Source: Alphaproteobacteria bacterium
Lineage (GTDB): Bacteria; Pseudomonadota; Alphaproteobacteria; GCA-2731375
Length of the DNA stretch: 63,896 nucleotides
Reading direction: 5' to 3'
Assembly: GCA_965225945.1 (NCBI GenBank)
Contig: CBDDBZ010000014.1
Location: 1 to 63,896, forward strand
Shown here: piece by piece, positions 9,031 to 21,125 of the stretch
How the letters are laid out: each line of letters starts with the position of its first letter
Position numbering within the stretch: the first letter of the stretch is position 1
Notes under the pieces: model-generated
The model's database searches: none
Told to the model about the DNA's origin: nothing
What the model saw: the letters and a program-made list of their open reading frames with translations, nothing else
Made by a program: the position numbers and the translations under genes

Positions 9031-10168
9031 TACTCGCCTCACCGCAGAACCCGAAAATCCTTGTGCGAGATGATTCGGAAATTGTCGGTGATGGTGTCGC
9101 GCCACGTCGTCCACTCTCGTGGCAGTCGTCGGCGGAAGAAATCGTCGATGGCTTCGGTGAAGAGGGCGAAGCTGGCGTAGAAGCTGTTGTGGGTCACCTC
9201 GCGATGCATGACGCCCCATAATCGCTCGATGGCGTTGAGGTGGGGAGCGTAGGACGGTTGGAAGATGAGCTTGATGCGGCAACCCGGTCTCTCCAGCCAT
9301 TGTCGGACCAGGCGGGCGTGGTGATAGCGGGCATTGTCGGCGAAGACATAGATCCGCGACTTGCCGGGATTGGTGGCCTCCAGCATCTCGAACAGCGCGA
9401 TCGTCGAGGCGGCGTTGATCCTCTCGGCCTGGACCAAGGGGCAGTGGAAGTTTTCCAGGTTGAGCGCGCCGTGGAGATTGATGCGCTGGCGCCCCGAGGT
9501 CCGGCGTAACGCCACTTTGTCGCCCTTCTTGACCCAGCCATGGACTGGGCGGGACTGGAATTCCGGGTGCACCGCATCGGCGAAGTAGACCACCTCGTCG
9601 GCGGCCAAGCCGTTGAGAAACTTATCATAGGCCTCGATAAAGGCGGCCTGCTCGGCCTCATCGGCCTGAGCCGGCAGGCTTTTCGGGCGCTTGTATTCGA
9701 AGCCCAGGCGATGCATCACCTTGATGCAGCCCGAATGGCTGTAGATCACTCCGTAGGTCGCCTTGATATGGGCTGCCACCTCGCCGGTATCGCGGTAAAG
9801 CCGTTGGCTCAGATGGGCCGAAAGCTCCGCCTCTTGCTCCCGGCTCAGATGGCCCGACCGGCCATGCCAGTCGAACAGCGTCATTTCATCCAGGCCGCCC
9901 GCACGGTAGCGCTTCAGCCACGTCCGCACCGTGTCGTCGTCGAGGTAGAGCCCCTTCGCCACCTCGACGCAGCTCAAGCCGTCATCCAAGAGCAGAACGG
10001 CGTTCGCGCGGCGCGCCACCCCGTGGGTCTCGCTCGGATGCCCCATCACCGCCTCCAGGGCCGCGCGTTCCTCGATGCTCAGAAATCCACCGCGAATCAT
10101 GACCGCGAGAAGAATCGATCCGCAGCCGGATTGCCAGAACTTTTTCGGGTCTGCGGGGAGTCGGGGTA
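9031..10168 (-). mobile_element. IS630-family element; transposase 9039-10100
   Basis: TA TSD (9029-9030, 10169-10170); imperfect IRs TACTCGCCTCACCGCAGAACCCGAAAA / TACCCCGACTCCCCGCAGACCCGAAAA; DNARYH and YAPHLNAIERLW motifs. Confidence 0.93.
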
Positions 10169-11744
10169 TATCGGCCATCATCAGGACATCACCGACCTCA
10201 AGCAATCGGAAGAAGCCGTGCGGTACAGTCGTGCGCGGTTTCGTGACTACGCCGAGGCCTCGGCGTATTGGTTCTGGGAGATGGATGCCGATCTTCGGTT
10301 CACCTACATGTCGCCGAACGTCGAGCGCGTCGTCGGGGTGAAGCCAGAATGGCACTACGGCAAGACGCGTCAAGACATCCTCGGCACTGGCTATGACCGC
10401 GAGACCTGGGACGCGCATCTAAAGACCCTGCGCCGGCATGAGCCGTTCCGGGATTTCGTCTTTTACCGTGTCGGCGAGGGTGTCGAGCCGCGCTGGCTGA
10501 GCACGAGCGGAACGCCGGTCTTTGACCAAGACGGAGACTTCCAAGGCTACCGCGGTAGCGGGAGCGACGTTACCGGTGCGGTCGCCGCCGAGCGGGCAAT
10601 CCAGGAGAGCGAGGCGCAAATGCGCCTCGTCACCGACAATCTGCCGGTATTGATCGTCCAATTCGATGCGGAACTGCGCTTTCAGTTCGCCAACGATTCG
10701 ATGCCTGCCAGAAGCCAGAAGTGGTACGCGAGACCGCTCGATCGAATTATCGGCGCCACCGTCGGCGAAGTGTTGGGCGCCGAGGCGATGGCGGTCCTGC
10801 GCCCGCGCCTGGACGCCGCCAGGCAAGGCGAGACCACGAGCTTCGAGGAACGGGTCACGTATCCCGACGGAGTCACGCGCGACGTCCAGATCACCTATAT
10901 CCCGAACCGGGGCTCGAACGGCGATGTCGCCGGTGGCTTCGGCCTCGTCATGGACATCACCGGGCAGAAGAGGGCCGAGGTGGCCAGAGACCGCTTCCTC
11001 GATGCGATCGAGAACCTGTCCGAGGGGCTGGCGCTCTATGATGGCGAGGAGCGCCTGGTGATATGCAATAGAGAATACCGTCGGGTCCTCGGGCTCGCCG
11101 GAGACGTCGCCAAGCCCGGCATGAGGTTGGAAGAAATTCTCCGCGCGATGATCGAAAGAGGCGTAATTCCGGAGGCCGAGGCGGACCCGGAGGCGTGGCT
11201 CGAGGCGCGGATGGTCCGTCATCGCCGCGCATCGGGAGATCCCGAGGTCTTTGAGGCCGAGCGAGTCGATCGGCGCTATCTGGTCTGCGAAGAACGGCTG
11301 CGCGATGGGAGTGTGATTATCTCGACACTGGACATCACCGAGCGGAAGGAGGCCGAAGAGGCGCTCCGCGAGCGGGAGGCCATGTTGAACGCGGTCGTCG
11401 AAAACGTCCCGATTTCGCTTTGTCTGAAAGACCGCGAGGGGCGCTTCACCTTGGTCAATCCTGGCTTCGAACGGCTCCACGGCGTCACCGCCGCCGAGGT
11501 CCTGGGCAAGACGTTTTTCGACATCTTGCCCCATGAAATCGCCGCCGATGCCGCCGCCGAAGATCGCCACGTGGTGCAGAGCGGCGAGCCTCTGCGCACG
11601 GATTACTCCTGGCCCGCCCATTTGGGAGTCCAGCACGAATTGATCTTCAAGTTTCCGCTTCGCCTTCACCATGAAGGTCCAATCACGGGCGTTGGTGTCA
11701 TCGCGCTGGATATCACCGAGCAGAGGCGGCAGGAGGAACAACTC

Positions 11745-13084
11745 GATTGAGCAACCTGATGTGTGGAAATTCGGAACGCCGTTGATCAGTCATCCTCTGC
11801 TTTCCAAGTGATGTAGGGTTTTTCGGTGGTTTCCCATTTCTCGTCGATTTCGACGAGGATGGCGGTGACCAGACGTTCGAGCGAGGCCTCGTTGGGAAAG
11901 ACCCTGACCTTTACGGTGCGGCGCTTGATCTCCTGCTGGATGGATCGCTCCATGGGGTTCGAGGTTCGCATGCGCTTTTGGTGGCGCTCGGGCAGGGCGA
12001 AGACGGCGAGGCCCTCGGGGATCGCCGTCTCCAGCCAATCGGCGAGCTTGGGGGCGCTGTCGCGGTAGGCCGCCACCAGATGGCCCAGCTCGGCCTCGGC
12101 GGCCTTGCTGTCGGCGGCGTTCCAGACCCGGCGCAGCTCCTTGCCGATGGCCTTTCGGATGGCGAGGTTGGGGGCGTGATGGATGGCGTTTTGAGCCAGA
12201 TGGTACTGACAGCGCTGCCAGACGGCGCCGCCGAGGACGGCCTTGCGCGCGGCGCCGAGGCCTGGATGATCATCGGAAACGATATAGGCGACACCGCGCA
12301 TGCCACCGGCAACCAGGGTCTCCAGGAAGGCGCGCCAGTGCACTTCGGCCTCGGAGAGCGCACAGGAAACACCGAGCACCCGGCGGCGCTGGTCGGGGCC
12401 GATGCCGATCACCGAGAGCACGGCGGCGTCGCGCACCACGCCACCCTCTCGGACTTTCTCATAGCGCGCGTCGAGGAGCAGGTAGCGGATCTCGCCCAGC
12501 GGCCGGTTGCGCCAGGCATCCAGCTCCCCATCCAAGAGCTTGGCGGCGCGGCTGACCTGGCTCGACGACAGGCTCTCCAGGCCGAACTCGCGCATCACCG
12601 CCTCGGCGTCACGGGTGGAGACGCCTTTGATATACATCTCCGCCACGGCCAGCATGACAGCGCGGCAGGAGCGCCGTCCGCGCTCCAGGGCTTGGGGGTA
12701 AAAAGGCGCCTCATGACCGGCGGTCTTGGGAACCTCGAGCCTCACCGTACCGGCCGGGGTGTCGATCTTCTTGGGTCTGGTGCCGTTGGCGTATCCCCGC
12801 CGCTCGGGCGTGCGCTCATAGTGGCCGGCGCCCAAGAACCTCTCCCGCTCGATCCGCATGGCGAGATTGAAAAGGCCGGCGAAGACCGTCGCCATGTTCT
12901 CGCTACCGCCTTCGATCAATTGTTCCACCAAAGCCTCGACAGCGCTATCCTGGTCTTTCCGCATACTGGTTCTCCATGTTTGTTTGGACGCTTTCATGGA
13001 TAACCAAAATGACGGATCGCCCCGCGCCGGGGTATACCCCGGCGCGGGGCGAAGCCAAATTTCCAGACCTCACGCTACACAAGC
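11745..13084 (-). mobile_element. IS256-family element; transposase 11786-12964
   Basis: Mutator-type motifs (MYIKGVSTR, LLLDARYEKVR, WQRCQYH, RTSNPMER); 8-bp TSD AACAACTC (11737-11744, 13085-13092). Confidence 0.93.
13017..13052. repeat. 36-bp perfect palindrome in the IS256 leader
   Basis: TCGCCCCGCGCCGGGGTA|TACCCCGGCGCGGGGCGA. Confidence 0.9.
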
Positions 13085-14299
13085 AACAACTCCGCCAGGC
13101 CCAGAAGATGGAGGCGGTGGGGCAATTGACCGGGGGCATCGCGCATGACTTCAACAACCTAATGGCCATCATCCTGGGCAACATTTCCTATCTCGACAGG
13201 AAGCTCGAGCCCGATAGTCAACTCAGGGCGTTGACGGCGCCGGCCCTGCGGGCGGTCGAGCGGGGCGCGTCGCTGACGCAACGCTTGTTGGCCTTCTCTC
13301 GCACGCAATCGCTCGTCACCGAGACGGTGGATGTCGAGAAACTGGTGGCGGAACTCGGCGAGCTGCTGCGGCGCAGCCTCGGCGAGGATGTCAGAATCGA
13401 GATCGCGACATCAGCGGACTTATGGCGATGCCAGGTCGATCCGGGACAATTGGAGCAGGCGGTCCTCAATTTGGCCAACAACGCGCGCGACGCCATGGCG
13501 GATGGAGGCAACCTCACCATCGAGACGTCGAACGAAACATTGACTCGAGACGATCCAGACCAGCAGCTCGAGGCAGCCCCCGGAGCCTACGTGATGATCT
13601 CGGTAACGGATGACGGCGAGGGTATGTCGCCGGAGGTTCGTGAGAAAATCTTCGATCCCTTCTATACGACCAAGGAGGTGGGCCAGGGCTCCGGGCTCGG
13701 TCTCTCCGTGGTGTATGGCTTTATCCAGCAATCCGGTGGCCACATCAGGCTAGACTCCGAGGTTGGGGTCGGCACGACCGTCCGTCTCTACCTGCCGGCG
13801 GTGACCCAGGTCGATGCGCCTGCGCCAAGGGCGGCGGAAGCTGCTCTGGGACCGGAACCGGGAGCGAGGGTGCTTCTCGTCGAGGACGACGAGGATCTAC
13901 GGGCAATGACCCGGATCTTCCTTATCGACCACGGCTACCAAGTGCTGGACGCCAGTACGGGACAAGAGGCGCTGAAGATCTTCGATGAGAACGGCGGGAT
14001 CGATCTCTTGCTGTCGGACGTCGTCTTGCCCGGGGGGCTGCACGGGCCTGACGTCGCGGTCGAAGCGCGCCGAACCAGGCCCGACCTCAAGGTCGTCTAC
14101 ATGTCCGGCTACGCCGGCGACGCGCTCGAGCGATACCGCGGCATCGATCCCGATCCGGTGCTGATCCAGAAACCATTCGATTGCGATATTTTGGGCCGCC
14201 GACTGCGACAGGTTCTCGATCAAGGCTGAACGGGACGCGCTTGCCGCTCCGGCCCTCCACCGAGAGGCCAGCCCGCGGCTCGACGACGATAAAATCGCT

Positions 14300-15352
14300 T
14301 CAGCCGCCGTTGCCGAGCTTCGAGCGGGCGAGCCGGGCACCTTCGACCATGTTCACCAGCTTGGCCCACGCGATGGGCGGGGCGAGGGGGACGAGGCCGC
14401 AGTCGGGGGCCGCCTGAAGCTGCCGCGCCGGCAGATGGCGGGCCGCCGCCAGGAGTTTCGCCGCCACCTCCTCCGGCGTCTCGACCGAATCGATGCCGTT
14501 GTCGATGCAGCCGAACATCACCGTCTTCGAGGGGCAAAGGCGCAAGAGCTCCGGATCCAGGCGCGAGGCCTCGAACTCCAGCGCCAACTCGTCGACCCGG
14601 GAATTTTCCAGCGCCGCCAGGATCGTCGGGTAGCTGTCGAGGATCGGCCGGGGCACGCCCGCCATCGGGTAGCTGTAACAGACGTGGACCGCCGTCCGCG
14701 CCGCCAAGCCCTCGAGGGCGCGGTCGAGCGCCTCGATGCCCCACTCCACCACCTTACCGGGATAGCGGGAGAACACCGGCTCGTCGAACTGGATCACCGC
14801 GGGCTGAAGCGCGTCGAGCGCGCGAGCCTCCGCGTTCAGCGCGACGGCCACGTCCATCGCCATCGCCGCCTGGTCCTCGCCGTAATGCTCGTCGGCTAGC
14901 GTGTCGACCACCGTCATCGGCCCCGGCAGCGTCACCTTGAGCGGCCGGCTGGCCTGGGCAAGCGCGAAGGCCAGGTCGTCGACGACGATCGGCCGGACTC
15001 GATGGATCTTCCCCGTACAGCGCCCGACCTCGGCGAGCCGCCGCCTGTTGCGGGTCCACTTCTTGGCCAGCCTCCCGTAGTCGACCCCGCCGAGCGCCCG
15101 TGTCACGTAGGTGAGATAGGATTTTCGCCGCTGCTCGCCGTCGGAGACGATGTCGATCCCGGCGTGCTCCTGATCATGGATCGAGAGGCGAACAGCGTCG
15201 TCGAGCGCGGCGTCGAGCGCCTCGCCCTCCAGCCGCCAGTCGGCGCCCGCGCCGTGCACCTGCTTGCCCCGGGCATCGAGTGGCAGCTTTTCCTGCAGCC
15301 AGACCGGCTTCGGCATGCTGCCGACGACGGTGGCGAGAAACGGTTCCCCCAT
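14300..15352 (-). CDS. Cobalamin-independent methionine synthase II-like protein (MetE C-terminal domain only), Zn thiol-activating enzyme
   Basis: VVGSMPKP, GIDIVSDGEQRR, TLPGPMT, IQFDEP, Zn ligands HVC...E...PDCG. Confidence 0.85.
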   Translation of the reverse strand: MGEPFLATVVGSMPKPVWLQEKLPLDARGKQVHGAGADWRLEGEALDAALDDAVRLSIHDQEHAGIDIVSDGEQRRKSYLTYVTRALGGVDYGRLAKKWTRNRRRLAEVGRCTGKIHRVRPIVVDDLAFALAQASRPLKVTLPGPMTVVDTLADEHYGEDQAAMAMDVAVALNAEARALDALQPAVIQFDEPVFSRYPGKVVEWGIEALDRALEGLAARTAVHVCYSYPMAGVPRPILDSYPTILAALENSRVDELALEFEASRLDPELLRLCPSKTVMFGCIDNGIDSVETPEEVAAKLLAAARHLPARQLQAAPDCGLVPLAPPIAWAKLVNMVEGARLARSKLGNGG

Positions 15353-15406
15353 GGCCGCGCGCCTCCTGGTCCGTGGCGATGGCGCGGCGTCGTCCGAAAG
15401 GCGAGC

Positions 15407-15931
15407 TCAGCGCGCCGTGAGCAGCCCCAAGATGTCCTCGAAGGCGGCCTCGGCGATGGCGCGAATTTCCGCCGTCGTCCGATCCTGGATCGGATGCGGG
15501 ACGTAGACGATGCCCGGCTCGAAGCCGAGCGCGCGGGCCTGTGCGTCGGCCGCCTGTTCGAAGGCGGTGGTGGCGATCATGCCGCCGGGAATGCCGCGAC
15601 TGTCGAGATCCGCGATGTCATGCAAACTGCACGACGTGCAGGAGCCTCAGTCGCTCAGCGCCTCGACGACGAGGTCGCATTCGGTGGTGATCGCCTGCAG
15701 GAGCTCGACCGGCGCCGTCTTGGTGTTGGTCGGCTTGGCGTAGCGGCGCACCCGGATGGCGCGGTCCGCCATCAGCTCCTCGACCCGGTCGATGAACTCG
15801 TCGCCCCGGGCCTTGCCGATGTCCAAGAGGGCGATGGTCAGCCCCTCGAGCGATGCGGGCGGCGCCTTGCGCCGGCGCTTGGCCGGCGCGGTCTCCGCCG
15901 TCGGATCCAGCAGTATCGTCGATTGGTTCAT
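15407..15931 (-). CDS. UGSC-family selenoprotein (in-frame UGA read as Sec), 174 aa
   Basis: ORFs 15647-15931 and 15407-15625 share a frame joined by TGA (15647-15649): VVEALSD-U-GSCTSCSLHDIADLD; hairpin immediately 3' of the UGA. Confidence 0.88.
15605..15646 (-). promoter_or_regulatory. Candidate bacterial SECIS element
   Basis: UGA-GGCUCCUGCAC-[GUCGUGCA-GUU-UGCAUGAC]-AUCGCGGAUCUC: 8-bp upper stem, GU-starting apical loop after a 19-nt spacer, lower stem also possible. Confidence 0.7.
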
Positions 15932-17367
15932 TCGCCCACCTCCAAGGTTACCATTTCGCTGCCTTTCTCGCCGGTCGCGGCCCAGCCGCCGATGATCGCC
16001 GACATCATGCCGGCGGTGCCGCCGGCACGGACGATATTGAGGCCGCCCGGGCGAAACTTGGCGAGGCTCCGCTCGGCGAGGCTCTCGGGCATGCCCTCGG
16101 CAATGCCGCCGGCGCCGCGCGCCAGCTCAGCGACGGGCCGCGTCGTCGCCTCGTCGAGCGCGCCCAGCAGATCCCGCCGGCTCCAGCCCGCCTCGGCGTA
16201 GGTTCTGAGATGCTCGGGCGAGATCACCACCAGCGCGTCGTGCGCCTGCGCCTTCTTCGGATGGCCGATCGAGAGCAGCGAGGCCGCGAGGCTGCGGGTG
16301 AGGGAGTCCGGCGTGCGCGAGGCCTGGTCGAAGCAGCCGAGCACGCCGTCGCCGCCGAACAGCGTCACCGTCGAGGTCCCGGGCGCGAAGCCGCGCTCGA
16401 CGGAAAACGGCTCCCAACAGGGGTTCGATTCGTCCTCGGCGAAGCAGAAGGTGTATTTGCCGGGGGTGCCCAGGGTCGCCCGGTCGATGCCGCCCGGCAC
16501 GCCGCCACCGACGTTGCGAATCACCAGTTGCAGCGCCCGGCCGATGGTCGCGTTGGCGCGGTTGCCTTGGCCCAGCGCGTTCTCCCGGCTGTTCATGCCG
16601 ATTCGGCCGACGACGGGCCCGTTGACGATCACCACCGGCGCGGAGAAGTAGGTCGTGCACAACAGGCCGTGCATGCAAAATTCGGGGATCAGCGCGGCCT
16701 CCACGGCGGCCAGCACCACCGGCAGGTATTCCGGCTTGCAGCCCGCCATCACCGCGTTGATCGCCACCTTTTCGACCGTGCATTCGGCGAGGTTGGGCGG
16801 GACCCGGCCGATCACCTCGGCCGAATCGCGTCCGCTGCCCTTCAGCATGCGGAGCACGCGGATCTCGCTCGGCGGAACGACGGGCAGGCCGTCGCTCCAA
16901 CCCCGCTCGTAGGCCGACTCGACCGGGTCCTCCCAGCCGCCGAGCTCGATCCGGCGCGCGGCAAACGCCACCTCGCCGAATTTGAGCTCGAGGATCTCTT
17001 CCATCCCCGGATCATGGCTGCGCGAGCCGCAGCCGGGCCGCTCGTCGGGCAATCCCGAGCCGAGGCCGCCGAGCCCGGACACCGTTTCCCATTCGCCCCG
17101 ATGCCAGCCGATGGCGCGGGCGACCTCGTGGCCCCCCTCCATCCGGATCAGCGTCGGAACGGTCTCGATATCGAGCCGCCAGGAGGCTTCCAGTTCGGTG
17201 TCGTCGACCGGCGCCTCGATTCCTGCGGGGAAGCTCGGATCGTCCTGGCTGTAAACGACGAGGGGCGCATCCGCGCCGGCGAGCTGGCTCAAGACCGGCT
17301 CGATCAGGATGCAGGCCGGGCAGTCCCGCTTGGCGACGACGATCAGTCCGTCGGCGAGCGGCGTCAC
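15928..17367 (-). CDS. Thioredoxin-fold (CPAC) N-terminal domain fused to a conserved domain of unknown function
   Basis: KRDCPAC...IETVPTL thioredoxin-like N-terminus; GWSDGLPVVPP, TVEKVAINAVMAGC, GNRANATIGRA motifs; stop overlaps the selenoprotein start (ATGA). Confidence 0.8.
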   Translation of the reverse strand: MTPLADGLIVVAKRDCPACILIEPVLSQLAGADAPLVVYSQDDPSFPAGIEAPVDDTELEASWRLDIETVPTLIRMEGGHEVARAIGWHRGEWETVSGLGGLGSGLPDERPGCGSRSHDPGMEEILELKFGEVAFAARRIELGGWEDPVESAYERGWSDGLPVVPPSEIRVLRMLKGSGRDSAEVIGRVPPNLAECTVEKVAINAVMAGCKPEYLPVVLAAVEAALIPEFCMHGLLCTTYFSAPVVIVNGPVVGRIGMNSRENALGQGNRANATIGRALQLVIRNVGGGVPGGIDRATLGTPGKYTFCFAEDESNPCWEPFSVERGFAPGTSTVTLFGGDGVLGCFDQASRTPDSLTRSLAASLLSIGHPKKAQAHDALVVISPEHLRTYAEAGWSRRDLLGALDEATTRPVAELARGAGGIAEGMPESLAERSLAKFRPGGLNIVRAGGTAGMMSAIIGGWAATGEKGSEMVTLEVGE

Positions 17368-17383
17368 GCGGTGCCTCCCGCGC

Positions 17384-17758
17384 TCACTTGCGGACCCATT
17401 TACCGTTCTCCCCCAGAAAATACGTCCCGCTCGGGGCCTTTTTAAGGATCTGTTGGGCGTAGACCCGGCCGACCTGGTCCGCCGGCACCTTCTGTTGCTG
17501 GGCCCGTTTCTGGTAGATCCCGCGCCGCTGGGCGTTGACCGAGCGGACCAGTTTCTTGATCGCGGCCGACGGGTTGGGCTGGGTCGCCATGACGTATCCG
17601 TCGAAGCGCTCGCCGATATGGCCGCCGGCGCGGTACTTATCGAGCGATTGCGCGGCCGCCGGCTCGGGCGCGGCGGCGACCAGCAGCACAAAGACGACCA
17701 TGAGCGCCGGCCAGAGGCGGCCAGCGAGGGAAAGAGCGTTCGCAGCGGAGGTCGGCAT
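17384..17758 (-). CDS. ydbL: YdbL family (DUF1318) protein
   Basis: Signal peptide, G.IGERFDGY, VNAQRRGIY; synteny with ynbE/ydbH. Confidence 0.8.
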   Translation of the reverse strand: MPTSAANALSLAGRLWPALMVVFVLLVAAAPEPAAAQSLDKYRAGGHIGERFDGYVMATQPNPSAAIKKLVRSVNAQRRGIYQKRAQQQKVPADQVGRVYAQQILKKAPSGTYFLGENGKWVRK

Positions 17759-17964
17759 TAGAATACGTTCGGGTTCTTGTTGATATCGTCTTGCGCCGCT
17801 TGCTCCAGCTTCACTCGGACTTCCGCCTCGAGATTGATGTTGAGGTTGATGGTGATGGGCTCCCTGGGGGCCTCGATCTTGACCGTCGGCGCGCAGGCCG
17901 AAATTGCCGCGATCATCGACAGAGCCGCGATCATGGGAAAGCAAAGATAGCCGAGTGAGCGCAT
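17758..17964 (-). CDS. ynbE: YnbE-family lipoprotein
   Basis: Lipobox ISAC then PTVKIEAPREPITINLNINLEAEVRV. Confidence 0.85.
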   Translation of the reverse strand: MRSLGYLCFPMIAALSMIAAISACAPTVKIEAPREPITINLNINLEAEVRVKLEQAAQDDINKNPNVF

Positions 17965-18020
17965 GTGTCGCTCCCGGGATCGAACATCGGCTCGCGGCGG
18001 CGGAACCGGCGGACGCGAGG

Positions 18021-21000
18021 TCAGCGGACGGTACCGCGAATGGCCTGGTCCGACAAGCGATGGACCTCGAGCGCGGTCTCCAGCAGCCGGTCGAATTGGC
18101 CGCGCAGATCGATGTTGACGGCGAAGGGATGGCCGTCCAGGACGGCGGGATTGTGGCCCTCGATCGAAAGCGTCAGCTTGCCCCGGCCGTCCGGCGGCTT
18201 TTCCAGGCCGAGAACCAGGCGCGAATAGCGGAAATCCTCCAAGGCGCTCAGCAGCAGCTTGACCGGCTCGCCCGAGCCGGTCAGCGCGGAATCGAGTGCC
18301 GCGAGCGAGATCCGGATCACCCCCGGTCCCTCCGCCTCCAGCCAGCCGCCGGAGACGGCGAAGCCCTGCTCCAGCACGGCGATCGGTATCGTGCCCGAAA
18401 GCCGCCCGGTCCCCGTCACGCCCTCGATCTCCAGCCGCTCGAAGAGCTTCGCCAGATCGACCTCCGAGAGCCGCAGCTTCAAATCGTGGGTTCCGGCGTC
18501 GGCCTCGATGTCGGTGTCCTCCAGCTTTACCCGGGCGAAGGGCGTGGTCGCCTCCAGCCCCTCGATCCGAAACACCAGCGGGCGCTCGGCGGTGCCGACG
18601 AGCGACACGCGCGCCTCGATCTCGCGCGCCTCGACGCCGGCGACGATGGAGGCGATGGTGAGCCGTTGCGGCGCCGCCGTTCGGGGCGGCCAGAGCTCCG
18701 ACAAGGCGATCCGGGCGTTCAGGCCTGCGACCGTCGCCGCCTCGATTTCGAAGCCGATGTCCGCCAGCTCGATCGTCGCACTGCCCGAGACCGTGCCGTC
18801 GGCGAGGCGCAAGTCGGCCGCGCCGGCGACCCGCCCCGCCACCCGCTCGAGCCCGGCGAGCGCGGGGAAAAGCGCGCCCGGTTGCGTGCCCTCGGCCTCG
18901 AACACCGTCGGCGGCAGCGTGATCCGGGCCTCCAGCACGCCGTCGGCGAAGCCGTGGCGGGCGGTGACGTCGAGGCGCAGAAAGTGGCTCTGGTCCAAAA
19001 CCGAGAGACCGAGGCCGATATCCTCGGGCCCGATCCGGGCCCGGCCGATCGCGCGGAGCCGGGGGAGCGCCAGGGGAGCCTCGGTCCAGCGGATCGCGCC
19101 GATCTTGAATTCGACGCCTGCGAGGTTCCGCAACTCGGCCTCGACGCCCTCCATCGTGACACCGAGGGCCGGCGCCGCGAGCCCGCCGCCGAGCAGGCGG
19201 ATCGCGCTCTCGCCCCTTTGCAAGGCGATGTCGATCTCCTCGGCCGCCAGCTCCAGCTCGAGCGGTCCCGCCTCGCGGGCCAGCGCGAGGGTGAAGGGCT
19301 CGGGTACGATCCGCGCCCGGACCTCGTGGGAAAGCTCCGCCCACTCCAGACGCAGCAGCGGCGCCTCGCTCGCCAACAGCGCCAATTTCAGCGGCGCCGG
19401 AGCCGAGAGCGTTTCGCTCAGCCGGAGCGCCGGCAGCCGCAGCTCGCCCCGACCGTCGAGCGCGAGGGTCATGTGCGTCCCGCTCGCGCGGAGTTTCAAC
19501 GGCAGGCGCGCCGTTATCCAGCCGAGGCCGGAGAGCGCCTCCAAGCGGGGCCGGACGGTGCCTTCGAGCAGGCCCGCCGCCGTCGTCTCGCCGTCCTGCC
19601 AGGTCACGGTGCCGGTGAAACCGAGGTGGCGCGCGCGGTGGCCCGAAACCTCGACATCGCGTGCCGAGAGCGTGGTCGGCGCCGCTGCGACGCGACCCGT
19701 GAAGCCGGTGCCGTCGATGCGTCCTTCCCCCCTTACCTCGGCTTCCAGCCCCAGCCGTTCCAGCGCCAGCGAGACGTGCGCCGCGCCGGCGAGGTCGACG
19801 CCGGTGATGCTCCCGTTTCCGTCACGCGTCGGGCGGAGCCGGATCGCCGGACTCGGCGCGATCGTCAGGCGCACCGGCCCCCGGGCGAGCGTCGCCGGCA
19901 CGCCCAACGCCTGGGCGGCACCGAGCGCGATCTCACCAGCGGTCAAGAGGGCGGGCGCGGCGAGGCTGGCCTCGATCTCGCCGGCCGGGCCCGAGAGGTC
20001 GAGCGTGACGATGCCCGAAATCCCGGAGGCGATGCCGGGAAGCGCCACATCGTCCAGATCGACGACGACGGTGAGGAAGCCCTCGGCGATTACGGCGGCC
20101 GCGCTCAGGGCGGGCGCGGCGGCGAGGTGCCCGAGGTCGAGCGTCAGGTCGCGCCCCACCAGGTGCAAGCTGGCGCGTCCCGCCGTCGGCGCCCACGGGT
20201 CGAGGTGGCGCCAGAGCGCCGCGTGATAGGGGGCCGCCGCCTCGAGCGACAGGCGCTGGAGGCGAAACGATCCGGCTGCTAAATTCGGCGTGCCCGAGAT
20301 TTCGATTCGCGCCTCGGCGCCGCGCGCCCGGCCCTCGAAGCTGGCGAGAACCACCTCGCCCTGCCGGCTCACCGACAGGGCGCCCGAGGCCACCGCCACG
20401 CCGTCGACCTGGAGGCGAAGTTCGGAGAGCGCGGCATGCAGCGTGGCGAGCGCGCCCGCCACGATCGTGAAGCCGACCTCGCCCGAAAGGCCGTCGATCC
20501 GCCCCCGCTCGAACTCGAGCCAGCCGCCGGCGAGCCGCAACTCGCCCGCGACGTCGCCTCGGATCGTGCCGGCGAGGCTCAGCTCGGCGGTGACACGACC
20601 CCGCTCGGCCTCCGCCACGATGGCGACCTCGCTCTGGAGGGCGCCATCGGCGCCCCGCGTCAGCTCGCCCGAGACCGCCGCCCGCAAGGGGCCGAGGGGG
20701 CTAACCCAGCGGACCTCGCCGTCGACGATTCGCACCGCGAGCGGCCCGGGATCGAAGCCGCCACCGCCCTCGCCCGCCCCGTCGCCCGCCGTCGGCCCGA
20801 AGCCGGGCAAGCTCGGGTCCGAGAGGTCGACCCGGGGAGACTCGATCAATATGTCGTCGATCCGAGGCGCCCAGGGAGCCGAGAGATCATACTCGACGCT
20901 GATCGCGCCCGCGGCGAGTGCCGGGCCGAGGTCGATCTCGGCGAGCTTCAGGCCACCGAAGTCGAACCGCTCGACACGGTAGTGGGCCTCGGCGAAGCCG

Positions 21001-21125
21001 GCCCGCGCCAGCCCCACGTCGATCGCGACGCGCGCCAACTCCGCCCGATTGGCCCAGGCGAGCCCGAGCCCACCCGCCAGAAGCGCGGCGAGGACTAAGC
21101 CCGAGATTTCGGCGGCCCGACGCAT
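18021..21125 (-). CDS. ydbH: YdbH-family (AsmA-like) intermembrane lipid transport protein
   Basis: N-terminal TM, long beta-rich body, C-terminal GTGRLSGTIP...ALEDFRY...GHNP...VNIDLRG. Confidence 0.8.
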   Translation of the reverse strand: MRRAAEISGLVLAALLAGGLGLAWANRAELARVAIDVGLARAGFAEAHYRVERFDFGGLKLAEIDLGPALAAGAISVEYDLSAPWAPRIDDILIESPRVDLSDPSLPGFGPTAGDGAGEGGGGFDPGPLAVRIVDGEVRWVSPLGPLRAAVSGELTRGADGALQSEVAIVAEAERGRVTAELSLAGTIRGDVAGELRLAGGWLEFERGRIDGLSGEVGFTIVAGALATLHAALSELRLQVDGVAVASGALSVSRQGEVVLASFEGRARGAEARIEISGTPNLAAGSFRLQRLSLEAAAPYHAALWRHLDPWAPTAGRASLHLVGRDLTLDLGHLAAAPALSAAAVIAEGFLTVVVDLDDVALPGIASGISGIVTLDLSGPAGEIEASLAAPALLTAGEIALGAAQALGVPATLARGPVRLTIAPSPAIRLRPTRDGNGSITGVDLAGAAHVSLALERLGLEAEVRGEGRIDGTGFTGRVAAAPTTLSARDVEVSGHRARHLGFTGTVTWQDGETTAAGLLEGTVRPRLEALSGLGWITARLPLKLRASGTHMTLALDGRGELRLPALRLSETLSAPAPLKLALLASEAPLLRLEWAELSHEVRARIVPEPFTLALAREAGPLELELAAEEIDIALQRGESAIRLLGGGLAAPALGVTMEGVEAELRNLAGVEFKIGAIRWTEAPLALPRLRAIGRARIGPEDIGLGLSVLDQSHFLRLDVTARHGFADGVLEARITLPPTVFEAEGTQPGALFPALAGLERVAGRVAGAADLRLADGTVSGSATIELADIGFEIEAATVAGLNARIALSELWPPRTAAPQRLTIASIVAGVEAREIEARVSLVGTAERPLVFRIEGLEATTPFARVKLEDTDIEADAGTHDLKLRLSEVDLAKLFERLEIEGVTGTGRLSGTIPIAVLEQGFAVSGGWLEAEGPGVIRISLAALDSALTGSGEPVKLLLSALEDFRYSRLVLGLEKPPDGRGKLTLSIEGHNPAVLDGHPFAVNIDLRGQFDRLLETALEVHRLSDQAIRGTVR

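Follow-up and report, generated by a model that had tools for sequence, protein, structure and literature searches.

Which genes make up the system around a selenoprotein of the UGSC family is the question raised by a locus of an Alphaproteobacteria bacterium (GTDB lineage GCA-2731375; assembly GCA_965225945.1). In contig CBDDBZ010000014.1, of which positions 1-63,896 are referred to here as the window, three co-directional genes occupy positions 14300-17367 of the minus strand in the order A-B-C. Gene A (15928-17367, minus strand, 479 amino acids [aa]) encodes a thioredoxin (Trx) domain followed by a second conserved domain, tentatively referred to as the “A-domain”. Gene B (15407-15931, minus strand) encodes its partner, a UGSC-family selenoprotein of 174 aa when an in-frame TGA is read as selenocysteine (Sec), and gene C (14300-15352, minus strand, 350 aa) encodes a Zn methyltransferase-like protein corresponding to the C-terminal part of MetE only. 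A first-pass annotation, made from the sequence alone, had suggested that the three form a relay in which the Sec either carries a methyl or alkyl group or is recycled by the Trx domain. We conclude that the A-domain and UGSC form a real, widespread, and uncharacterized two-part selenoenzyme system, and that gene C stands outside this conserved module.

The gene layout described in that annotation, with three co-directional genes, an ATGA overlap, and a gap of about 55 bp, was recovered at the same positions, on the minus strand. Genes A and B overlap by ATGA, the stop codon of gene B is separated from the start of gene C by 54 nt, and gene A starts with GTG, with a GGGAGG 5 nt upstream. Because the GC content at third codon positions (GC3) of the three frames is 0.86-0.95 and homologues are numerous, we regard A, B, and C as real genes and not as chance open reading frames (ORFs). 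The motifs pointed out earlier (CPAC, UGSCTSC, and HxC/E/C, respectively) are all present in the translations or alignment of the three proteins.

Conservation and fusions of the A-domain and UGSC

A search with gene A, restricted to one genome per species, returned 547 relatives, and the best 80 loci were kept for neighborhood counts. These loci span Alpha-, Beta-, and Gammaproteobacteria, Myxococcota, Chloroflexota, Planctomycetes, Nitrospirales, Hydrogenedentota, and others, and tblastn showed that in every one of the 80 the next gene downstream of A is UGSC, 0-253 nt away. When the ORFs at the 80 loci were clustered, A and UGSC were the sole conserved families, two further conserved clusters being read as antisense shadows of these two genes. 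No other gene family occurs in more than 16 of the 80 neighborhoods, and no transporter or resistance genes are conserved near the pair at these loci. Cultured strains of Noviherbaspirillum are among the carriers (L080, L085, and L087).

The same association is found among the paralogues of this genome, which contains six UGSC genes, all of them containing a single in-frame TGA, and eight copies of the A-domain, all at UGSC loci. Besides the pair described here, there is one more pair of a Trx-A gene and a UGSC gene, a locus with an A-domain followed by UGSC, and a locus with UGSC followed by two A-domains. The remaining two loci encode UGSC::A-domain fusion proteins (552 and 582 aa), and after one of these comes a second A-domain. 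Of 300 other genomes sampled evenly across the phylum, three contain UGSC, and all four of their UGSC loci have an adjacent A-domain, which brings the UGSC copies beside or fused to an A-domain to 10 of 10 (six here and four in the three other genomes). The adjacency at 80 of 80 loci, the ten copies all accompanied by an A-domain, and the fusions in either order described below support the functional coupling of genes A and B, with A-domain plus UGSC as the conserved unit. On this point, namely that the thioredoxin-fusion and UGSC genes belong together, the first-pass annotation was right.

A short-chain dehydrogenase/reductase (SDR) gene adjoins A-domain/UGSC modules at two of the paralogous loci (L008:7338-8420 and L010:5-556; the Pfam scan of the paralogue neighborhoods covered 32 of 70 called ORFs), as it does at 16 of the 80 orthologous loci. 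This recurrent neighbor could be a clue to the substrate or merely a common neighbor.

Fusions of the A-domain were surveyed against Pfam in 74 representatives of at least 400 aa, drawn from the best 150 A-domain cluster representatives. UGSC is fused to the A-domain in 39 of the 74, in either order: 11 carry a full-length UGSC at the N-terminus, 24 carry its post-Sec half only, these being gene calls that begin after the TGA, and 4 have the opposite order, with the pre-Sec half at the C-terminus. Other partners are an AhpC/TSA-redoxin domain (6/74), the catalytic chain of ferredoxin-thioredoxin reductase (FTR; 2/74, one of which is also among the 39 UGSC fusions), and a thioredoxin-reductase-like Pyr_redox_2 domain (1/74). 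Among the 27 representatives that match no Pfam family are tandem A-domains and forms that, like gene A, are of the Trx type. On contig C5, moreover, an operon consists of a UGSC::A fusion, a second A-domain, and, directly after it, a 315-aa Pyr_redox_2 gene. The identifiable fusion partners of the A-domain are all thiol-disulfide electron-relay modules, and these electron-donor fusions fit the earlier idea that the Sec is recycled by the Trx domain.

Gene A has no match to any Pfam model, including Thioredoxin, or to any NCBIfam model at E ≤ 0.01. In its AlphaFold2 (AF2) model (predicted local distance difference test [pLDDT] 91.3, predicted TM-score [pTM] 0.86, from a 70-row alignment), residues ~1-100 (17068-17367, minus strand) adopt a thioredoxin fold. 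This domain was matched with a Foldseek probability of 1.0, and in VIA searches with Z-scores of 9.8-10.0 at a root-mean-square deviation of ~2 Å over 85 aligned residues; thioredoxins are also the sole matches of the gene A profile among PDB sequences. The canonical thioredoxin motif is WCGPC, instead of which gene A has C16-P-A-C19, a CxxC placed at the start of helix 1 of the fold. The other Cys motifs noted in the first pass, PGCGS (C113), AGCKP (C210), and FCMHGLLC (C231/C237), are present, but GCGS, AGCKP, and FCMHGLLC are assigned to a separate domain of ~350 aa and not to the thioredoxin domain.

This A-domain (residues 128-479; 15931-16986, minus strand) is conserved and is covered by no Pfam or NCBIfam model. 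A profile built from 25 aligned sequences, 7 of them paralogues from this genome, reaches E ≤ 1e-3 for 8111 clusters formed at 50% identity and E ≤ 1e-30 for 2545 of them, and homologues of gene A of ~479 aa number more than 8000. D159, R277, N285, and E311 are invariant in the alignment, and C210 and C308 are near-invariant (~90% conserved). Beyond thioredoxins, Foldseek searches with the whole-A model returned weak matches to class I iron-sulfur (Fe-S) fumarate hydratases (best E 9e-4, TM-score ~0.2) and to Toblerone-fold hydrolases (E 0.02-0.04), and the VIA lists obtained with the same model were filled by thioredoxins. The ESM Atlas yielded unnamed look-alike clusters only, in one of which UGSC is found on 16% of the members.

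Sec decoding and fold of the UGSC protein

Gene B is a member of the UGSC family (NF041046/PF24696; the “UGSC-containing protein” of Zhang and Gladyshev 2007/2008), scoring 137.9 bits against PF24696 (E 4.8e-40, cut-off 25) and 136 bits against NF041046, over the 125-bit cut-off. Its motif reads U95-G-S-C98-T-S-C101, and its Sec codon is the in-frame TGA at 15647-15649 (minus strand). At the related loci this codon is TGA in 78 and TGT in 1, a further locus ending at a contig edge. Conserved protein sequence continues on both sides of the TGA, and Cys homologues of UGSC were found.

Downstream of the codon lies a hairpin resembling a selenocysteine insertion sequence (SECIS), at 15618-15634 on the minus strand, or +16 to +32 counted from the U of UGA. 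In an alignment of 76 distinct sequences, from which the Cys-form locus (L018) and a truncated locus (L089) were left out, 95.3% of the hairpin cells are paired, compared with 4-56% in slid controls. One compensatory change (C-G to U-A) was observed, position G18 varies with pairing retained (44 G-U, 29 G-C, and 3 A-U), and G23 and U24 of the apical loop are invariant in 76 of 76 sequences, a loop that we presume to resemble that of the Escherichia coli fdhF SECIS. Within the stem, Ser100 is encoded by TCG in 68 of 71 Ser codons and Cys101 by TGC in 75 and TGT in 1; upstream of it, five codons are in use for Ser97, and Cys98 is encoded by TGC in 60 and TGT in 16. Since the same amino acids vary in codon use just upstream, we read the synonymous sites of the stem as frozen. 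The hairpin is absent from the single Cys-form locus. UGSC is a real selenoprotein.

For the Sec machinery, the genome contains a SelD of 738 aa with an N-terminal pyridine-nucleotide-disulfide oxidoreductase (Pyr_redox_2) fusion (L097:2324-4537, on contig C30) and, beside this fusion gene, a tRNA-Sec (C30:103779-103874). selA and selB occur as a pair in a same-family genome and in the two genomes of the same genus, which measure 7.4 and 8.0 Mb. Two candidates in this assembly were rejected, a candidate on contig C25, which is IF2, and an ORF on contig C36, which gives only a partial SelA match. Among the 80 loci, selB directly follows the A-UGSC pair in 14 and selA in 11 (a representative selB-linked locus is L066:8998-12369, from a Burkholderiales metagenome-assembled genome), and the pair may be the main reason that such genomes keep their Sec machinery. 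This genome also encodes a second, unrelated Sec family, a PrdB/GrdB-like selenoprotein of 405 aa (L098:742-1956, on contig C38) with an in-frame TGA in CPV-U-PNC and a PF07355 match of 45.7 bits.

The AF2 model of UGSC (pLDDT 90.7) shows a five-stranded parallel alpha/beta fold that is flavodoxin/Rossmann-like. Strand 87-93 is immediately followed by Sec95 at the N-terminal end of helix 96-111, and Cys98 and Cys101 lie one and two helical turns from the Sec, respectively. Fold matches are generic, and no function was drawn from them: Foldseek and VIA searches returned, for example, SsuE (1e-4), and 8s7v_H (Z 12.1) is followed by many unrelated entries at Z 9-11. No solved GrdB or PrdB structure is among the matches, and the UGSC profile finds nothing under E 0.9 among PDB sequences.

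In the 2008 survey, UGSC ranks among the most abundant selenoproteins of the Global Ocean Sampling (GOS) data, with 255 Sec and 21 Cys sequences, is fused to a domain named “Unknown_1”, and is guessed to have a Trx-like fold (PMC2398784). The flavodoxin-like model contradicts that fold suggestion, and “Unknown_1” probably corresponds to the A-domain. The function of UGSC is called unknown in PMC2398784, PMC1976440, PMC9312934, and PMC13188914. The earlier statement that UGSC has no established function is in line with the selenoproteome surveys and reviews found, and neither an obligate pairing with the A-domain nor electron-donor fusions were found in this UGSC literature.

Gene C, expression, and neighboring genes

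Gene C had been described as a MetE C-terminal-only protein with HxC/E/C, and this description is borne out by its match to PF01717 (3.7e-28, 99.2 bits, cut-off 21) and by its end-to-end alignment with the single-domain protein 3rpd_A (E 4.7e-66), in which H223-x-C225, E259, and C318 line up. We take H223, C225, E259, and C318 to be Zn ligands, as in MetE. With HxC, E, and C kept, gene C resembles single-domain cobalamin-independent methionine synthase-like proteins (3rpd_A; NF006589/PRK09121), but it reaches none of the methionine-synthase equivalog cut-offs (best NF006589, 277 vs. 392 bits; NF003317, 187 vs. 406 bits; TIGR01371, 72.7 vs. 930 bits) and is unlinked to the UGSC pair outside the genus. 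Thirteen MetE-C-terminal-only paralogues, 26-42% identical to gene C, are scattered in this genome, pointing to a large family of Zn-dependent methyl/alkyl transferases that act on diverse substrates.

A neighborhood survey had been set beforehand as a test of whether gene C belongs with the UGSC pair, and it showed that the MetE-like gene is not co-conserved with it. Such a gene occurs at 0 of the 80 A-UGSC loci at E ≤ 1e-5, and even at E ≤ 1, where 67 of the 80 have at least 1.2 kb of sequence downstream of UGSC. None of the 13 paralogues lies near the five further UGSC loci of the genome, and no MetE-like gene is found at the four UGSC loci of other genomes. Among 40 relatives of gene C, the order A-B-C is found in two same-genus genomes only, in which C is 82-85% identical, and shared descent explains the trio there. 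The next orthologues (G008 and G012, ~55% identity) have no A or B in their 1.5-kb flanks, and 27 of 29 other MetE-like loci from the relatives are likewise without A and B there. Gene C is thus an unrelated, lineage-specific neighbor acquired in the genus and is not part of the A-UGSC system.

Contigs covering parts of the region were compared in four metatranscriptome runs. A and B are bridged by mismatch-free contigs in two studies (X16, 15614-16053; X18, 15847-16160), and B and C by one mismatch-free contig (X16, 15143-15631). Positions 14323-14745 of gene C have no contig cover in the four runs, which proves nothing. No terminator or sigma-70-like promoter was predicted between genes A, B, and C. 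Given the 54-nt gap, the lack of a predicted terminator, and the one bridging contig, co-transcription in this organism is possible, and the contigs make it plausible at most.

Upstream of gene A, on the same strand, is a trio of YdbH-like (18021-21125), YnbE-like lipoprotein (17761-17964), and DUF1318/YdbL-like (17387-17737) genes, the last separated from gene A by 16 nt and bridged to it by an X16 contig with a single mismatch (17266-17977). On the other side, a Mutator-family transposase gene with a PF00872 match (11786-12997, minus strand) lies between a PAS-rich ORF, which ends at 11750, and an ORF of the HisKA/HATPase/receiver type (12976-14229; all within 9540-14229 of the window), and looks like an insertion sequence dividing one hybrid sensor kinase.

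Proposed mechanism and alternatives

We consider it probable that A and B are two parts of one selenoenzyme reductase driven by the thioredoxin system. The further proposal, that A-domain plus UGSC represents a previously undescribed class of two-subunit selenoenzymes, with a catalytic fold lacking annotated relatives and a disulfide-relay donor that varies with the host, is more tentative, and we give it a little less than an even chance. From the pairing, the Sec decoding, the folds, and the electron-donor fusions observed above, we infer the reduction itself, the direction of electron flow, and the roles of the cysteines as follows. The Sec95 selenolate would attack and reduce a substrate held by the A-domain and would end as a Sec95-Cys98 selenenylsulfide, which would be handed on to the CPAC dithiol of the Trx domain, with Cys101, C113, C210, or C308 as possible intermediates. 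The Trx domain would be re-reduced by thioredoxin reductase, or by a ferredoxin-dependent reductase in other lineages. Electrons would then run from NAD(P)H via thioredoxin reductase (or from ferredoxin via an FTR-like enzyme) to the Trx domain (C16/C19), from there to UGSC, and finally to the substrate. Since orthologues are 56-73% identical between phyla, we lean toward a small, widespread metabolite or an oxidized sulfur or selenium species as the substrate.

Thiol-dependent reductases fused to Trx, for example fused methionine sulfoxide reductases and peroxiredoxin systems, offer a comparison. As in these, a built-in Trx-fold CxxC domain stands beside a putative catalytic domain, with AhpC/redoxin, FTR-B, and thioredoxin-reductase-like modules as alternatives; the A-UGSC pair differs in that this domain belongs to no known family and the nucleophile resides on a separate small selenoprotein.

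Several observations weigh against a thioredoxin-driven selenoenzyme reductase. The A-domain is without a convincing structural relative in the Foldseek and VIA searches with the whole-A model, and its catalytic role, which we infer, has to be counted as a weakness. One fusion paralogue lacks C210 and C308, and two UGSC paralogues lack the last Cys of UxxCxxC. The neighborhoods of the 80 loci are heterogeneous (SDR 16, TctC 12, AMP-binding 9, and CoA-transferase III 8), and the RNA-library contigs show neither strand nor a single transcript, with DNA carry-over possible. Finally, searches of this assembly (6.27 Mb, 96.5% complete) recovered neither selA nor selB; as both genes occur in two same-genus genomes, we attribute their absence to a gap in the assembly.

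A specific version of the reductase proposal would have UGSC act like glycine or proline reductase, with Sec95 attacking a substrate carbon and the resulting selenoether resolved by the cysteines of UxxCxxC. UGSC would then be the GrdB/PrdB part and the A-domain the substrate-activating subunit. The literature describes GrdB/PrdB as a UxxC(xxC) selenoprotein that depends on the thioredoxin system and works with a separate substrate-activating polypeptide, and the UxxCxxC spacing of UGSC matches the GrdB motif given there (PMC13188914). Dependence on the thioredoxin system would be common to both, and residues 83-152 of UGSC align weakly (E 0.01) with positions 335-399 of the GrdB model TIGR01917. 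However, this alignment scores 14.8 bits against a 602-bit cut-off, and no UGSC copy in this genome matches PF07355 at E ≤ 1. Compared by hhalign with the genome's own PrdB/GrdB-like selenoprotein, UGSC gives a probability of 0.3 (E 0.2) with Sec not aligned to Sec, and the A-domain profile gives a probability of 0.1 with the same protein. These comparisons show no significant sequence relation of UGSC to GrdB/PrdB, no GrdA-, GrdC-, GrdE-, or PrdA-like partner was seen, the A-UGSC pair is found in many phyla, and SelD here is fused to an NADH-dehydrogenase-like domain. We regard this version as unlikely, though still the foremost of the alternatives.

Less likely again is that UGSC serves as a redox carrier or as a handler of metals, metalloids, or selenium (selenite, arsenic, mercury, or Fe-S), with the A-domain as scaffold or acceptor. 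Sec and two Cys on one helix face could plausibly bind a metal or metalloid, the best weak Foldseek matches of A are to Fe-S class I fumarate hydratases (E ~1e-3), and the pair lies next to selA or selB in 11-14 of 80 loci. But those matches have a TM-score of ~0.2, the third Cys is not kept in all UGSC paralogues, the conserved surroundings lack transporter and resistance genes, and the electron-donor fusions point to catalytic turnover and not to storage. The three-gene relay, in which the MetE-like Zn enzyme would donate a methyl or alkyl group to the UGSC Sec or accept one from it, draws on the co-directional genes, the 54-nt gap without a predicted terminator, the contig bridging B and C, and the A-B-C order kept in two same-genus genomes. 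It failed on co-conservation, with no MetE-like gene at any of the 80 loci, at the other five UGSC loci here, or at the four elsewhere, and with the relatives and paralogues of gene C mostly apart from A and B, and we consider it very improbable. Hardly any weight is left for the TGA being a true stop, with gene B as two small ORFs or a pseudogene: gene callers do split B, and this assembly yielded neither selA nor selB, but the TGA is kept in 78 of 79 loci between conserved protein segments, the conserved hairpin shows frozen synonymous sites and a compensatory change, Cys homologues exist, and selD and tRNA-Sec are present here, as are selA and selB in congeners.

The two-part thioredoxin-driven reductase is the favored reading. 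Through its pairing with the A-domain and the electron-donor fusions of that domain, the UGSC motif becomes a defined system, open to purification and to assay with NADPH and thioredoxin reductase, and the Noviherbaspirillum carriers provide a genetic handle. A misleading lead has been removed with the MetE-like gene, which lies outside the system, and all UGSC copies examined travel with a ~350-aa domain of an 8111-cluster family that has no Pfam or NCBIfam model. The A-UGSC pair is common in environmental bacteria and is apparently supplied by thioredoxin-type electron carriers. If the proposed two-subunit selenoenzyme class is true, it would reduce a common unrecognized substrate in aquatic and soil bacteria, and this common substrate would explain why UGSC ranks among the most abundant environmental selenoproteins.

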